Shown: in pieces, positions 1,557 to 44,479 of the stretch
Layout: the number at the start of each line of letters is the position of its first letter
Numbering within the stretch: position 1 is the first letter of the stretch
DNA from: Planctomycetota bacterium
Lineage (GTDB): Bacteria > Planctomycetota > PLA2 > JAEUHO01
Direction: 5' to 3'
NCBI GenBank assembly: GCA_965222115.1
Contig: CBDCTJ010000007.1
Span: 2,272,001 to 2,336,000 of the forward strand
Length of the DNA: 64,000 nucleotides
The notes under the pieces: generated by a model
Seen by the model: only the letters and a program-made list of their open reading frames with translations
Told to the model about the DNA's origin: nothing
Database searches by the model: none
Position numbers and translations under genes: made by a program

Positions 1557-2306
1557 CTAGAAATCCACCGTCACGCCGACTCGTAGCGTTGCGTCGCCGT
1601 GGGTGCGCCGCAACGAAACATTGGGACGTACGCGGGTTCGAAGCCAGCGGTCGTGTTCCAGCTCGCCAAAGAACGTGCCGAAGAAGTTGCCTGCACCCCA
1701 GCCCACAAGCACATCCGAGGGGTAGTGCTTTCTGGCTGAGACTCTCAAGGCTCCCGTCGCGACCGGTAGAAGTGTTAGCGCACCATCGAGCCACGGGCGC
1801 ACGTCGCGCCGAACACGAGAACGTTTCAGTGCGTATCGAAGGGACGCGGCGCTCCACGCTGTGTGCGACGTGTGGCCGGAGTAAAAACTCAGGTGGTTCT
1901 CTCCATTTGGACGTCGTCGATGCCACAACGCCTTGAAGGGTCGATTGAGCGCCTCGTTTGCCACGCCTGTCGATACGGTGCCCACGAAGGGATCCCACGA
2001 TTGGTACCGCGCACTCTCAACGCCGGAAACGGTCAACGCTCCTAGAACCGATCCACGCAGCAACGCGTCGCTGGCCCGCTCGGCAGCGTCGGTATCACCG
2101 TCGGCAAACTCATCGGAGATATCGTGATCCAAGTCGGCTGCATCGATCGCGATCCCCGCGACAATCGGCGCCCAGGTTCGCCAGTCGGTCGCTGCCGTCT
2201 GCAGTGCTTTCGAGTGTGTCGGCGTCCACCCAGTCGATGAGCACCCGCCCAGCAACAACGCTGACCAGCCGACCCACCACACCATTCGCGTTCGCCCGTC
2301 AGGCAT
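1557..2306 (-). CDS. PAP2-family phosphatase, probable lipoprotein
   Basis: PAP2 motifs K-x6-RP (KALWHRRRP), SFYSGH and R-x5-H-x3-D (RVSARKHYPSD), plus a lipobox-like LLGGC. Confidence 0.85.
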   Translation of the reverse strand: MPDGRTRMVWWVGWSALLLGGCSSTGWTPTHSKALQTAATDWRTWAPIVAGIAIDAADLDHDISDEFADGDTDAAERASDALLRGSVLGALTVSGVESARYQSWDPFVGTVSTGVANEALNRPFKALWHRRRPNGENHLSFYSGHTSHTAWSAASLRYALKRSRVRRDVRPWLDGALTLLPVATGALRVSARKHYPSDVLVGWGAGNFFGTFFGELEHDRWLRTRVRPNVSLRRTHGDATLRVGVTVDF

Positions 2307-2448
2307 GTTGGTATCTCGCCTCCCAACGCGCAGTGTACGAGTAAGCTACTGCGGCAGGGGGCCGTTGGCACGAATTTCGAATGCAGTGGTACAGCTTCCA
2401 TAAACAAGTAACGGGTGCAAATTTTCGTGGGTCATCCAGTAGCGCCCT

Positions 2449-2554
2449 CCCGTTCCCCGTCACCCGTCACCCGTTACCCGTACCCCGAAACCCGTTACCC
2501 GGTCTCAAGGTAGATCGCTCGATGAGCGATGCGTTCGGCGCTTAAGACGTGGAC
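2449..2554 (+). repeat. Composite unit of heptamer array + CTCAAGG core + single GTGGAC, overlapping the stop of the four-helix-bundle gene
   Basis: CCCGTCACCCGTCACCCGTTACCCG...CTCAAGG...CTTAAGACGTGGAC, homologous to 3149-3325 and 8684-8756. Confidence 0.75.
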
Positions 2555-2931
2555 GGCCAAGGCTCGTCGAATCTTCGTTGAAGCACGAACAACATGGCGG
2601 CGGATCGCTCAAGGGTGCTCATGACGGCGGAGATTGCGGCCTCGCTGGCGAGTCCGAGTAGTAGCGCGTGATGTAGAGCTGCGATGGCCTCGGTGCATTC
2701 GGCGTGTGCGATGTCGTACGCTTTGCGCTTCTCGGCTGGCCGCCGCTTCGCCAAGCCCTCTGCGACATTGAGTGCCACGCTGGTACTTGCGCGCCTGAGT
2801 TGGTCGGCAAGTTTTGCGTGGCCACGAGGCCATGCGGCGCACAGGGCGTTGCATCCAAGCGCGGCAGCTTGCGAAGCACGGTAGACATCGAAGCGTTTTA
2901 GGTATTCGAGCGTAGAAGACGCGCTTGTCAT
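2542..2931 (-). CDS. Four helix bundle protein (23S rRNA-IVP / bAvd-like family), copy A
   Basis: FDVY...LADQLRRASTSVALNVAEG...AYDIAHAECTE family signature. GGAG SD precedes ATG 2931. Confidence 0.85.
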   Translation of the reverse strand: MTSASSTLEYLKRFDVYRASQAAALGCNALCAAWPRGHAKLADQLRRASTSVALNVAEGLAKRRPAEKRKAYDIAHAECTEAIAALHHALLLGLASEAAISAVMSTLERSAAMLFVLQRRFDEPWPSTS

Positions 2932-2932
2932 G

Positions 2933-3082
2933 ATGGAACTCCAGCGTGAAGGGATCGCAAGCCGCTTGCTCGCGTGTGCCCCTCGTTGAAAGAGCCGAAG
3001 GCGAAGGAGGGCACACGCGAGGGGGTCGTACAAACAAGGCCCCGCGTGATAGCGACAACCCGTTCTCATGCTGGAGTTCCAT
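2933..3082 (-). other. Structured 5' leader of four-helix-bundle copy A
   Basis: A 17-bp inverted repeat (2933-2949/3066-3082, 1 mismatch) covers the SD and encloses a perfect 13-bp hairpin stem (2969-2981/3009-3021). Confidence 0.65.
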
Positions 3083-3217
3083 TACAAGCGGTGCCCGCGC
3101 GTACCGAACGCGCTGGTGCAACCGGCGGTGCTGTCCAAGGCCCTACCACCCGTTACCCGTCACCCGTTACCCGAACTCAAGGGTGATCATCCGAAGATCG
3201 ATTCGCGCCGCCTTAAC

Positions 3218-3325
3218 GTGGACGTGGACGTGGACGTGGACGTGGACGTGGACGTGGACGTGGACGTGGACGTGGACGTGGACGTGGACGTGGACGTGGA
3301 CGTGGACGTGGACGTGGACGTGGAC
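3218..3325 (+). repeat. (GTGGAC)18 perfect tandem repeat, preceded by heptamers + core (3149-3217)
   Basis: Read directly from the sequence. Confidence 0.95.
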
Positions 3326-3376
3326 GCGAATGGCAAGAACGCGCTAGTCGCATGCGTGCGACATTGGTAAGGTACC

Positions 3377-3532
3377 GAACTGATCGCTGTGTGACGTGAT
3401 TGCTCACTGGCAACACCCGCTTGGGAAGTGCTACGTGCATGCCCCTATTCGCCACAAGGGCGAGGGCACGCACTCGCATTCCCGCGGGTGTTTCCTCGTG
3501 GAGATTCTCGTATGTCACACAGCAATCAGTTC
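3377..3532 (+). other. Structured 5' leader of four-helix-bundle copy B
   Basis: 3377-3397 is complementary to 3512-3532 (ATG + first codons). An inner long hairpin spans 3412-3492 (AACACCCGC...GCGGGTGTT). Confidence 0.7.
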
Positions 3533-3898
3533 TCGGTTACTTCCACCGCGGGTCGGCTTGAACGATTCGACGTGTATCGAATCGCACGGCGTGCCGCGGC
3601 TAGCACTCACAAACTCTGTGGATCGCTGCCTCGAGGCAACGCGGAGCTTGCAAGCCAAGCTCGACGAGCCTCGACAGCCGTCGTCCTTAACATTGCCGAG
3701 GGCATTGGACGTGCCGGGGCAGGCGCAAAGCACCGTTCGTTCTCCATCGCTCGCGGCGAATGTGTCGAGGCGTCGGCGGCGCTCGACCTCATGCAGGCGA
3801 TGGACATCCTCGCGAATGCGAGCGCTGCTCCAACGCTTCGCGACCTAGATCGCGCCCGCGCAATGTTGAATGCGCTCATTCGTCGCTGGAGGGAATGA
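3512..3898 (+). CDS. Four helix bundle protein (23S rRNA-IVP / bAvd-like family), copy B
   Basis: RFDVYRIA...LASQARRASTAVVLNIAEG...FSIARGECVE, with a GGAG SD. Confidence 0.88.
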   Translation: MSHSNQFSVTSTAGRLERFDVYRIARRAAASTHKLCGSLPRGNAELASQARRASTAVVLNIAEGIGRAGAGAKHRSFSIARGECVEASAALDLMQAMDILANASAAPTLRDLDRARAMLNALIRRWRE

Positions 3899-3917
3899 GG
3901 GGTGCGCATTCCAGGTT

Positions 3918-4555
3918 CCCGTCACCCGTTACCCGTAACCCTCATTCAAGGGCGGGCATCCAATGAATGATGCGCGCCGCCTTAACGTGGACGTGGACGT
4001 GGACGTGGACGTCGAGAGCAAATGGCTTTGCCATTTGCACGAGACCCTGAGTAAGCACCAGCGGATCTTTGATCCGCGCAGTGCGCATCGAAGGGTGGAC
4101 GTGAACGATCTGAGCCTTCCCTTTGCCGACTCGCAGACGACGCTCCACGTCAACTTCAACGGCCCCGGGGGGGGGCACGGGTCAATAGCCCAGTGTGAAG
4201 CGCAAGCGCAGCGGCGCGTAACGCTGGGTTTAGACGTCCCCAAAATTGGCCACCCTGAAAGGGTGGCGGAAACCCACGAACATCTACACGCGTAATCTCG
4301 CACAGACGATTCGTGATTTTCATGGCCCCGATTAGAGACGTGTTCGTCGTAAGTGGTTTGAACCCTCTCCCCACAACGCCCTCTCCCAGAGGGAGAGGGG
4401 GGCTTTGACTTGGGAAAGACTGTGAGGCTAAGAGTTTGCGGCTCCCGTTGTCTTTTGGATTGCCTCAGCTGCGAACGAAACGCTGCGGACGGCGTGCGCG
4501 CTGGTGACTGAGCGCTGCTCCATGAAACGTGTGGATTTTGCCCGTACGCCGTATC
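3918..4555 (+). repeat. Full-length modular composite repeat: heptamers, core, (GTGGAC)4, CCCTGAGT..TCGAAGGG hairpin, REP-like 46-bp core, CCCTCTCCC..GGGAGAGGG hairpin, 27-bp motif
   Basis: Colinear with 8684-9164 and 12060-12329, and inverted at 27300-28190. Confidence 0.85.
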
Positions 4556-4658: not shown

Positions 4659-5003
4659 ATGGCCCACCGCGAATCAAGAAATGTCTCGTTGGCTCCGGCC
4701 CAAGATCAATTCGTAAAGGCGATGGTGGATGGGGGCCGCTTTCGTACCGCCAGTGAAGTTGTGCGCGAGGCGCTGCGTCTATTGGAAGAGCGGGAGCATC
4801 GCCGCTTGCTTGAGAAGTGGATCTACGAAGGCCTCACAACCAATGAAGAGGCGCGACTACCCGAAGCAATTAAGAAGCGCGCTCGTGAGCACTTCGAGGG
4901 CCTCTTGTCCGCGCCGCTCGCAGATGTTGAGTACGGCAACGTTGCCGAAGGTGCGTCCGCCATGGCAAAGCTACGATCCGAACTCGAATCGCAGTCGGAC
5001 TGA
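4659..5003 (+). CDS. Type II antitoxin, ParD family (ribbon-helix-helix)
   Basis: NVSL...FVKAMVDGGRFRTASEVVREALRLLEERE signature. Confidence 0.88.
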   Translation: MAHRESRNVSLAPAQDQFVKAMVDGGRFRTASEVVREALRLLEEREHRRLLEKWIYEGLTTNEEARLPEAIKKRAREHFEGLLSAPLADVEYGNVAEGASAMAKLRSELESQSD

Positions 5004-5308
5004 GTTTCACGAGCTATCAACTAACCACCACAGCGGAAGAAGATCTACGCGTTGCTCTACAGTTTGTTGCCAAGCGAGACGGAGTCGACCGGGCACTCCG
5101 CGTGCACAACCGATTCCTCGAGACGTTTAGCGCCATCGCAGAAATGCCACGCATCGGGTACGTGCGACCGGGCTTGACAGGGAATCGCTTTCGTTGGTAC
5201 ACCGTATTCAAGTGGGTTGTGATCTACGACCCCGTGGGTTCACCCATCACGATTCTCCGAGTCTTGCACAGCGCTCAAGAACTAGACCGCATACTTGATG
5301 AAGACTAG
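5000..5308 (+). CDS. Type II toxin, RelE/ParE family (probable CTG start)
   Basis: SYQLTTTAEEDL...AEMPRIGYVRPGL...VVIYDP...ILRVLHSAQEL. The only start-like codon upstream of the N-terminal motif is CTG 5000, which overlaps the ParD TGA. Confidence 0.82.
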   Translation: MSFTSYQLTTTAEEDLRVALQFVAKRDGVDRALRVHNRFLETFSAIAEMPRIGYVRPGLTGNRFRWYTVFKWVVIYDPVGSPITILRVLHSAQELDRILDED

Positions 5309-41255: not shown

Positions 41256-41329
41256 TGGAGGCACCGTCCGGAATCGAACCGGAGTACACGGATTTGCAAT
41301 CCGTTGCCTAACCACTCGGCCACGGTGCC
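41256..41329 (-). tRNA. tRNA-Cys (GCA)
   Basis: GGCACCGTGGCCGAGTGGTTAGGCAACGGATTGCAAATCCGTGTACTCCGGTTCGATTCCGGACGGTGCCTCCA, with CCA encoded. Confidence 0.97.
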
Positions 41330-43378: not shown

Positions 43379-43440
43379 TAGACGTCCGGACCCCGCAAAA
43401 AAGTGCCGGGTGTAAATTTGCGAGGTTCGCGTGTCTCCCT

Positions 43441-43628
43441 TCACCCTTCACCCGTCACTCGTCACCCGTTACCCATAACCCGTACTCAAGGGCGGGCATC
43501 CGATGAACGATTCGCGCAGCCTTAACGTGGACGTGGACGTGGACGTGGACGTGGACGTGGACGTGGACGTGGACGTGGACGTGGACGTGGACGTGGACGT
43601 GGACGTGGACGTGGACGTGGACGTGGAC
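43441..43628 (+). repeat. Heptamers + core + (GTGGAC)17 (43527-43628)
   Basis: Read directly from the sequence. Homologous to 3918-4010. Confidence 0.93.
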
Positions 43629-43677
43629 GTGTGGTGGCCACGTGAATACCGCTTGTGAGCGACACCCATAACGCACC

Positions 43678-43833
43678 GAACTGATTGTTGTGTGACGTGA
43701 AGGCTCACTGGGCAACACCCGCTTGGGAAGTGCTACGTGCATGCCCCATTCGCCACGAGGGCGAGGGCACGCACTCGCATTCCCGCGGGTGCTTCCTCGT
43801 GGAGATTCTCGTATGTCACACAGCAATCAGTTC
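43678..43833 (+). other. Structured 5' leader of four-helix-bundle copy C
   Basis: 43678-43698 pairs fully (with G-U) with 43813-43833. Inner hairpin at 43716-43791. Confidence 0.7.
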
Positions 43834-44199
43834 TCGGTTACTTCCACAGCGAGTCGACTTGAACGATTCGACGTATATCGAATCGCACGGCGTGCCGCGG
43901 CTAGCATTCACAAGCTCTGTGGATCGCTGCCTCGAGGCAACGCCGAGCTTGCGAGCCAAGCTCGACGAGCCTCTACAGCCGTTGTCCTCAACATCGCAGA
44001 GGGCATCGGACGTGCTGGCGCGGGCGCAAAACACCGCTCGTTCTCCATCGCGCGCGGCGAATGCGTCGAGGCGGCAGCAGCCCTCGACCTCATGCAGGCG
44101 ATGGGCATCCTTGCCGGTGCGAGTGCGGCCCCAACGCTCCGCGACCTGGATCGTGTACGTGCGATGTTGAATGCGCTCATTCGTCACTGGAGAGAGTGA
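43813..44199 (+). CDS. Four helix bundle protein (23S rRNA-IVP / bAvd-like family), copy C
   Basis: 128 aa and nearly identical to copy B, with many synonymous differences. Confidence 0.88.
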   Translation: MSHSNQFSVTSTASRLERFDVYRIARRAAASIHKLCGSLPRGNAELASQARRASTAVVLNIAEGIGRAGAGAKHRSFSIARGECVEAAAALDLMQAMGILAGASAAPTLRDLDRVRAMLNALIRHWRE

Positions 44200-44217: not shown

Positions 44218-44388
44218 TCCCGTCACCCGTTACCCGTACTCAAGGGCGGTCATCCGAAGATCGATTCACGCCGCTTTGACGTGGACGTGGACGTGGACGT
44301 GGACGTGGACGTGGACGTGGACGTGGACGTGGACGTGGACGTGGACGTGGACGTGGACGTGGACGTGGACGTGGACGTGGACGTGGAC
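44218..44388 (+). repeat. Heptamers + core + (GTGGAC)18 (44281-44388)
   Basis: Read directly from the sequence. Homologous to 3149-3325. Confidence 0.93.
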
Positions 44389-44395
44389 GTGTATG

Positions 44396-44479
44396 TAGGC
44401 CAGGTGGGACTCGAACCCACATAGGTTTTCACCCGGGGGATTTTAAGTCCCCTGCGTATACCAATTCCGCCACTGGCCC
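44396..44479 (-). tRNA. tRNA-Leu (TAA), CCA not encoded
   Basis: GGGCCAGTGGCGGAATTGGTATACGCAGGGGACTTAAAATCCCCCGGGTGAAAACCTATGTGGGTTCGAGTCCCACCTGGCCTA, with a long variable arm. Confidence 0.95.

Follow-up and report, generated by a model that had tools for sequence, protein, structure and literature searches.

In this report, we describe a nested stem-loop that lies over the Shine-Dalgarno (SD) sequence or the start codon of each member of a small gene family in a Planctomycetota bacterium. The stretch of DNA analysed (64,000 nucleotides (nt), in the following termed the window) corresponds to C7:2272001-2336000, C7 being contig CBDCTJ010000007.1, within an assembly of 4.55 Mb. It contains three genes (copies A, B, and C) of the PF05635/TIGR02436 family, whose members are also designated "23S rRNA intervening-sequence protein" or four-helix-bundle protein. 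Judged from conservation and predicted folds, the element is most likely a family-specific structured 5' leader of the mRNAs for PF05635 four-helix-bundle proteins. That it acts in cis by locking the translation start in a long helix, which would probably be a substrate of an RNase III-type enzyme, is a reading to which we give about even chances. A nested stem-loop leader of 140-165 nt is carried by 18 of the 18 PF05635 genes of the genome, all of which are located on C7 between 2.27 and 2.85 Mb.

The 18 genes fall into two paralog types, eight of the B-type (MSHS[NK]QFS...) and ten of the A-type (MTSASSTLEYLKRF...), occur in both orientations, and are set between unrelated protein-coding genes. 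In four cases, an A-type and a B-type gene are divergent neighbours, as are copies A and B. The genes and leaders of the window comprise the following features:

2542..2931, minus strand: copy A gene, A-type, stop codon included (PF05635 E 8.6e-16, TIGR02436 E 4.7e-15), protein starting MTSASSTLEYLKRF...
2932..3096, minus strand: copy A leader, a block of ~165 nt upstream of the AUG, nested and branched, kept in 10/10 A-type copies
2933..2949, minus strand: copy A 3' arm of the inverted repeat, holding the GGAG SD sequence, 4/4 bases of which are paired in 10/10 copies
3066..3082, minus strand: copy A 5' arm (anti-SD, ...AUGGAACUCCAGC...), from inverted repeat and consensus structure
2929-2931, minus strand: copy A AUG, in a small four-base bulge of the consensus structure
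2922-2928, minus strand: copy A codons 2-4, which pair further out with 3084-3090
2969..3021, minus strand: copy A inner hairpin (CUCGCGUGUGCCC ... GGGCACACGCGAG); helix 78-92 with 118-132, 14 pairs, 1 compensatory
3375..3511, plus strand: copy B leader; homology of the 8 B-type copies starts at the 5' arm (CACCGAACUG)
3377..3397, plus strand: copy B 5' arm of the inverted repeat; helix 1, 24 pairs, 2 compensatory
3412..3492, plus strand: copy B inner hairpin of ~80 nt, stacked helices (helices 3-6), nearly invariant in 8 copies
3500..3503, plus strand: copy B GGAG SD sequence, which the consensus structure places for the most part in an internal loop
3512..3532, plus strand: copy B 3' arm, identical with the AUG and first codons, from inverted repeat and consensus structure
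3512..3898, plus strand: copy B gene, B-type, stop codon included (PF05635 E 1e-17, TIGR02436 E 1.6e-18), protein starting MSHSNQFS...
43676..43812, plus strand: copy C leader, B-type, from its fold; 5' arm 43678-43698, 3' arm 43813-43833
43813..44199, plus strand: copy C gene, B-type, stop codon included (PF05635 E 8.5e-19)

The outer arms are inverted repeats of unique sequence, and both of them are located upstream of the gene or over its start: positions 3377-3395 of copy B are complementary to 3514-3532 (19 nt, 95%) and positions 2933-2949 of copy A to 3066-3082 (17 nt, 94%). The predicted folds are much more stable than those of dinucleotide-shuffled sequences (200 shuffles per copy, none of which folded as well in any of the three cases), with -98.6 kcal/mol for copy B (3360-3550; shuffles -60.3 +/- 4.2, z -9.1), -92.0 kcal/mol for copy A (minus strand, 2900-3100; z -5.5), and -92.4 kcal/mol for copy C (43661-43851; z -7.2). 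The first-pass annotation of this DNA, made from its letters, had postulated such a nested stem-loop over the SD sequence or start codon of all three genes, and its description is confirmed in the details: in copy B, the start codon and the codons after it are bound by the 5' arm, with the hairpin at 3412-3492 lying in between, copy A has a 17-nt outer stem in which the GGAG is fully paired, and an inner motif, TGCCC..TTCGCC..GAGGG(G)CAC, is common to copies A and B. Likewise, the two substitutions that distinguish the 5' arm of copy C from that of copy B (ATCGCTG to ATTGTTG) were correctly said to preserve the stem; by comparison of the two sequences, one of them turns a C.A mismatch into U-A and the other a C-G pair into U.G.

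The two types differ in the part of the initiation region that is paired. In the B-type, the AUG and first codons are part of the outer helix and the GGAG is situated mainly in an internal loop, whereas in the A-type the GGAG is fully paired in 10/10 copies and the AUG is placed in a bulge. The A-type leader is furthermore branched, and its asymmetry is due to two additional small hairpins that have no counterpart on the 3' side.

Within the genome, the leader is tied to the gene. In blastn searches, the B leader gave 8 matches and the A leader 10, each at a gene start, which argues that the leader is part of the gene unit and not a free repeat. In a test for behaviour like that of repetitive extragenic palindromes or miniature inverted-repeat transposable elements, it was never found as an independent dispersed repeat, 8/8 B and 10/11 A occurrences being at gene starts and the eleventh A occurrence being a truncated remnant. 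This remnant, which consists of the 5' half of the A leader without a gene (C7:2443858-2443954), lies beside a minus-oriented copy of the repeat element E described below and ~1.2 kb from a tyrosine-recombinase match.

The paralog copies of both types are old, judged by the number of synonymous substitutions per site (dS; mean 0.63 for 28 B pairs and 0.73 for 45 A pairs), and ratios of nonsynonymous to synonymous substitution rates (dN/dS) of 0.07 and 0.11 for the same pairs indicate purifying selection on the proteins, from which it can be concluded that both types of protein are produced and are of importance. Over the same period the leaders have diverged by merely 0.067 (B) and 0.118 (A), i.e., 11% and 16% of dS. 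In the B-type, conservation sets in sharply: the 13 columns upstream of the 5' arm show a mean minor-allele fraction of 0.37 vs 0.02-0.10 within the leader. Leader variation is concentrated in the loops, with 14/102 paired vs 13/38 unpaired columns being variable in the B-type and 24/109 vs 29/50 in the A-type. Overall, the extent of variation is about fivefold lower in paired than in unpaired columns.

Since so few leader columns vary, covariation within the genome is thin. Among the 63 pairs of the A-type, three are changed on both sides, a number reached by 3/500 shuffles. In the coding 3' arm of the B-type, a His3-to-Tyr substitution (H3Y, 1 copy) is accompanied by a G-to-A change in the 5' arm in 1/1 cases and an Asn5-to-Lys substitution (N5K, 5 copies) by an A-to-U change in 3/5; these compensations are located at consensus pairs 32/160 and 24/168 and are telling because the substitutions in the coding arm alter amino acids. 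Pairing is thus maintained by compensatory change, although this measure does not determine which strand is selected.

The consequences for the start site were estimated as the free energy required to keep positions -15..+12 unpaired in the context -170..+40, with 250 long open reading frames (ORFs) of the same contig that possess an SD-like word serving as controls. The predicted opening cost amounts to 22.5-34.0 kcal/mol in 18/18 copies. For the controls it averages 13.0 (95th percentile 19.2, maximum 31.0), and 6/250 of them reach 22.5. By a cruder measure, the mean unpaired probability of positions -14..+5, the A-type copies (0.15-0.21) are below the control 5th percentile of 0.22. According to these models, start-site pairing exceeds what is usual for genes of this genome, by opening cost in both types and by unpaired probability in the A-type only.

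These properties suggest the following mechanism. Transcription is presumed to start at or upstream of the 5' arm, and the resulting RNA would fold into a single nested helix that is long and has few imperfections, with the translation initiation region as its 3' strand. The buried part would be the SD sequence and the spacer in the A-type and in related bacteria, and the AUG and first seven codons in the B-type. With the initiation region in the helix, the 30S subunit would be kept off and the gene would be closed by default, so that the lock presumably acts on translation or on mRNA stability. It might be opened through cleavage by RNase III, by a helicase, by the A and B proteins attaching to the conserved inner hairpin, or by means of an internal transcription start. 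The helices suit RNase III because they reach 20-30 near-continuous pairs, and an RNase III gene was found in this genome.

The family and the layout of its leader are not restricted to this organism. PF05635 is present in 15/41 related genomes, this one included; the subfamily, as defined by a 12-sequence profile, occurs in 14/40 genomes of the order and, at E <= 1e-25, in 30/401 genomes sampled from the phylum. Of 41 subfamily genes of the order inspected for leader hairpins, 22 possess one hairpin each, 72-94 nt in length, whose 3' arm holds the SD sequence. They belong to the genomes or genera G003, G044, G043, and G013 and to both paralog types of G026. Between hairpin end and start codon there are 0-4 nt in 21/22 (14 nt in the degenerate copy L047+). 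The remaining 19 were left out, 4 being cut by contig ends, 2 from G026 and 3 from G013 being treated separately below, and 10, both G001 genes included, being without such a hairpin or having an unclear start. The arm pairs vary by genus (GGCCUCCAGG/CCYGGAGGCC, GUGAUCUCCG/CGGAGAUCAC, AGUUCCUUCAGG/CUUGGAGGAACU, and GGGGGCUCCU/AGGAGUCUUC, compared to AUGGAACUCCAGC/GCUGGAGUUCCAU in this genome), and the inner-hairpin sequence GUGAGGGCGA is kept in G003, G044, G043, and G013. The earlier claim that the layout is kept despite sequence turnover, made from the copies in the window, therefore extends to five other genera with the same layout and different arm sequences. In the B-like type of G026, codons 2-5 are the partner of the outermost arm, a situation also found in this genome. 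G026 belongs to a different family of the order, and there too both paralog types are found as divergent neighbours (L023, L047, L035). Outside the order, the distant family G063 has the same layout with the SD sequence in the stem, and several other distant members of the phylum possess upstream hairpins with heptamer-like arms that end short of the SD sequence.

MAFFT alignment across genera aligned the inner hairpin but not the outer arms, for which four G003 leaders were therefore used to construct a covariance model (31 pairs). In a search of the 40 genomes of the order, this model matches only G003, G044, G043, and G026, and all matches except two weak ones coincide with the start of a PF05635 gene or adjoin a fragment of one. 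In the model alignment (49 rows, representing both strands of ~24 hairpins), 20/31 pairs are changed on both sides, with 169 such cells vs 71 +/- 6.5 in shuffled alignments (0/500 reach the observed number) and 89% of cells paired vs 45-51% with slid partners, figures that are generous because the alignment was fitted to the structure, the rows are related, and both strands are included. The covariation signal among the relatives appears strong nevertheless. Purely as an illustration, an SD-anchored gap-free register of 32 sequences, about five of which are set on the wrong partner, shows 78-84% pairing at the five positions after GGAG, with three Watson-Crick pair types plus G.U at each of them. 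A 21-base word taken from the B inner hairpin had no exact match in the genome and metagenome contig collections, and a protein-seeded scan of metagenome contigs yielded one distant relative only, so that, within the collections searched, the A- and B-type leaders are known from this genome alone.

The genes of the family are accompanied by a second repeated component, element E, which consists of a run of CCCGTNA heptamers, a core of ~45 nt, and a (GTGGAC)n array, and of which the window contains the following copies, recognised from the sequence and by blastn:

3147..3325, plus strand: element E between copies A and B, with (GTGGAC)18, not part of the leader
3918..4012, plus strand, same orientation: element E downstream of copy B
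2456-2553, 43440-43631, and 44221-44391: further copies of element E

Element E brackets every four-helix-bundle gene as direct, not inverted, repeats and also occurs alone, its orientation being the same as that of B-type genes and opposite to that of A-type genes. In the whole genome, it gives 47 blastn matches, 44 of them on C7 at 2.27-2.94 Mb, and 27 hexamer arrays of 3-33 units were counted, 25 of them on C7 at 2.2-3.0 Mb. On C7, cumulative GC skew is lowest at ~0.55-0.6 Mb and highest at ~2.70-2.75 Mb, which places the likely replication terminus inside the cluster formed by the 18 genes and element E. There the polarity of E flips, from 29 plus and 2 minus copies left of 2.74 Mb to 3 plus and 10 minus copies on the right, and the orientation of the genes largely follows. 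In the relatives, analogous short tandem repeats (GGGTTC, CCCGTG/CCCATG) are located beside the PF05635 genes. Other features of the neighbourhood are two adjacent small ORFs at 4659-5003 and 5102-5308, which by eye resemble a ParD/CopG-type antitoxin and a ParE/RelE-type toxin, a second family of intergenic repeats of ~30 nt (GAAACGTGTGGATTTTGCCCGTACACCGTAT-like; ~1504, 5413, 8033, and 10778; 15 blastn matches in the genome), and two tRNA genes on the minus strand, one at 44396-44479, immediately behind the hexamer array that follows copy C, and one at 41259-41329.

A number of results weigh against a start-site lock acting at the level of mRNA. By the cruder measure of accessibility, the B-type copies, with a mean unpaired probability of 0.31-0.39, are close to the control median of 0.40, and covariation within the B-type is weak, 2/63 pairs being changed on both sides and 54/500 shuffles reaching this number. 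Among the relatives, occlusion stronger than the control 95th percentile is predicted for only 11/46 scorable copies from other genomes of the order, with 0/5 in G013 and 0/2 in G001, and, outside the order, for 3/26 scorable copies; three G013 copies have a hairpin that stops upstream of the SD sequence. As far as these models go, the strength of occlusion is not conserved across relatives. The G003 model gave no match with the leaders of this genome, so that the kinship of the two sets is deduced from layout, gene homology, and short shared motifs, and the generous construction of the model alignment bears on its covariation in the same direction. The most serious objection concerns the strand. 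The helices are mostly Watson-Crick (1530/1749 non-gap cells, 87%), and for this reason both strands are able to fold; the antisense fold is in fact at least as stable in 17/18 copies of this genome and in 20/25 relatives, to which base composition may contribute. Of the rows of the model alignment, the 21 in sense orientation contain 21 G.U vs 30 A.C cells (9 of the latter stemming from a single C.A position that is conserved in the inner hairpin), whereas the 20 antisense rows contain 30 G.U vs 13 A.C. The sense consensus helices of six groups show 95 G.U vs 52 A.C, a count biased to the sense strand because the structures were predicted on that strand. Fold energies and G.U/A.C counts thus do not show the signature that an RNA from the sense strand usually leaves. 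Moreover, none of the sequencing runs matching the stretch is on record as RNA, and a scan of 2400-4100 for sigma-70 patterns gave no promoter-like site; a terminator scan of the same interval gave no terminator-like site either. A candidate promoter for extracytoplasmic function sigma factors seen by eye in the A leader (GGAAC-N16-GTT) was dropped because the relatives do not have it.

A role at the mRNA level is nevertheless argued for by two observations, namely that five other genera, the arms of which are unrelated in sequence, likewise have the translation start region as 3' arm and that the A-type structure is branched and asymmetric and not a simple palindrome. The suggestion of an undescribed cis-regulatory RNA in the first-pass annotation can hence be maintained in part: the leader is conserved, structured, strictly linked to the gene, and embeds the translation start, and it matches no described family in Rfam 15 at the gathering score, but the strand tests do not favour a sense RNA.

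The same strand data are the starting point of an alternative in which the palindrome acts as DNA, as folded single-stranded DNA or as a cruciform in recombination, copying, or cassette movement, and overlaps the start site merely because it abuts the gene. In addition to the capacity of either strand to fold, with an antisense fold of equal or higher stability and G.U/A.C counts that do not favour the sense strand, this explanation is consistent with the multi-copy nature of the genes, with their bracketing by direct copies of element E, which is also found without a gene, and with the clustering of genes and repeats at the GC-skew terminus, where their polarity flips, as is typical of strand-specific DNA processes. 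We regard it as unlikely, however, since a DNA-level function has no need for an SD sequence that is always placed in the 3' arm, 0-4 nt from the start codon in nearly all of the relatives with a hairpin, the branched and asymmetric A-type is unlike recombination palindromes, and the leader is never an independent repeat. Nor is a recombinase or HUH transposase gene located beside the copies: the genome contains 2 Y1_Tnp and 7 tyrosine-recombinase matches, none of them beside the 18 copies and one at 1.2 kb from the truncated remnant mentioned above. A less probable possibility is that the hairpin serves chiefly as binding partner of the encoded proteins, for autoregulation or in an RNA-protein particle, and that occlusion is secondary. 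In favour of this, it is the sequence and not just the pairing of the inner hairpin that is strongly conserved (GUGAGGGCGA in four groups), the hairpins of the two G026 paralog types are 73% identical vs 57% for the coding sequences and 43% for the proteins, and G013 keeps its hairpin although the SD sequence is uncovered. The homologous Avd protein of diversity-generating retroelements, which works with nucleic acid, also speaks for it. On the other hand, the A and B leaders of this genome (54% identical) are no more alike than the coding sequences (60%), and two G026 copies in which the inner hairpin was deleted have retained the gene and the outer stems, so that we consider this explanation doubtful.

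Slightly more doubtful still is an insulation against read-through, in which a promoter inside the leader would generate native transcripts that are without the 5' arm and are translated, and transcripts entering from outside would fold and remain silent. Fold-back inhibition in IS10 is a precedent for this arrangement. It would make use of the same physical lock, as reflected by the opening cost, and would fit genes that lie between unrelated genes in both orientations, behaving like inserted cassettes, whose proteins are under selection and must therefore be made, and in which conservation of the B-type begins exactly at the 5' arm. Against it stand the absence of a promoter-like site in or near the leader, in a scan limited to the sigma-70 consensus, and the almost invariant interior nested helices, which insulation alone does not explain. 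Very improbable, finally, are a retron-like msr-msd element, a free-standing non-coding RNA of some other kind, and an invertible DNA switch with the outer repeats as its boundaries. The outer inverted repeats do enclose a long hairpin, and they flank ~115 bp directly upstream of the gene, like invertible promoters; yet no reverse transcriptase (RT) accompanies the genes, Rfam gave no match, and the 3' arm coincides with the start of the gene itself. Contigs from four DNA sequencing runs of one study contained no strand-changing joints, which is weak evidence as they represent mostly pieces of paralogs and contigs drop rare variants. No recombinase that could act as invertase adjoins the copies, and inversion would change little because the interior of the leader is palindromic throughout.

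A broader idea, which cuts across the readings discussed so far and which we find tempting but improbable, somewhat more so than the DNA-level hairpin, is that the long hairpin belonging to each PF05635 gene, be it the stem of an rRNA intervening sequence, a heptamer hairpin, or a nested leader, provides the protein with its cognate nucleic-acid ligand. Binding by the A and B proteins, either to the RNA or to the folded single-stranded DNA of a replication-polarised terminus cassette, might then control expression or propagation, and gene and hairpin would form a self-contained hairpin-plus-binder module. If this were true, the module would be of a kind not yet described.

For the cis-acting leader, which we prefer, the consequences are more immediate. 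The stability of the leader, which changes at 11-16% of the synonymous rate, and its covariation with amino-acid changes would point to tightly gated expression. To our knowledge, PF05635 proteins are widespread and structurally solved but have no known function outside diversity-generating retroelements, and the leader would provide a concrete handle on the function of the family. It would add a large and easily recognised RNA motif to the bacterial cis-regulators, and it would connect free-standing PF05635 copies with the stems that RNase III cuts in rRNA intervening sequences. A full-text literature search (supplementary files aside) retrieved no description of such a leader.

Among the known systems, retrons share with the leader the outer inverted repeats, here of 17-19 nt and 94-95% complementary, a feature that is not specific for retrons. 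The likeness to an msr-msd noted in the first-pass annotation did not survive closer inspection, as the leader has no adjacent RT, its 3' arm is a coding start, and it matched no retron family of Rfam. In Rfam 15, the window yielded only 2 tRNAs, and in E-value mode the interval 2880-3580 gave two chance-level matches (E 1.2 and 5). The genome has 7 RVT_1 matches, which include six multi-copy RT genes of two size classes (L061, L064; C3:81659, C7:881482, and others); one RT of each class was checked and found inside a group II intron with matching D1-D4 and D5-D6 domains, and the one RT that is situated within 1.5 kb of a gene of the family falls, by its size, into the intron class. Diversity-generating retroelements are related through Avd, the kinship of which with PF05635 is stated in one account (PMC10053308). 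By profile, the solved PF05635 proteins 2GSC (2gsc_A, E 6.2e-17) and 2RLD (2rld_A, E 4.5e-5) were matched, and Avd itself gave no profile match at E <= 0.001. Unlike in the Avd-template repeat-RT arrangement, there is no RT, template repeat, or variable repeat beside the genes.

Start-site-occluding leaders as such are known. In the IS10 fold-back and in RNase III-processed leaders of phages and bacteria, an upstream segment pairs with the SD sequence or start codon, and translation requires that the 5' arm is removed or never made. The helices described here are far longer, with ~-90 kcal/mol over 140-165 nt, and they are nested and conserved as the signature of a gene family across genera.

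The closest published parallel is the intervening sequence (IVS) in the 23S rRNA of Coxiella burnetii. According to the published description (PMC4990558), its S23p ORF, a member of PF05635, is preceded by a putative SD sequence and adjoined by tandem heptamers of variable number, and the 5' cut by RNase III removes the putative SD sequence. The same source states that S23p was made in vitro only when a strong ribosome-binding site was added, that it was not toxic to Escherichia coli, and that the ORF is decaying (PMC4990558). On this account, the PF05635 family was already known to keep an SD sequence in an RNase III-cut stem (PMC4990558). The genes described here share with the 23S IVS the gene family, a long stem at the gene, and short tandem repeats, in this case heptamer and hexamer arrays. 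They differ in that all 18 are located outside rRNA, between protein-coding genes, and in that the hairpin encloses the leader and not the ORF, a gene-enclosing inverted repeat being absent from 2300-4200. In the one 23S rRNA gene detected in the genome (L128; C7:2146135-2149887, 2.146 Mb), which with 3753 nt compared to a model of 2925 positions carries an insert of ~830 nt, no PF05635 ORF was found; the ORF of this insert has a LAGLIDADG-like motif (GFVDGEGCF), for which reason the insert is probably an intron with a homing endonuclease. In contrast to the decaying Coxiella ORF, the genes have dN/dS values of 0.07-0.11, and, unlike the 23S IVS, they are present in 18 copies of two paralog types, often as divergent pairs. 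What is new here is an SD-in-stem design that occurs outside rRNA, is confined to the leader, and is found on genes under strong purifying selection.

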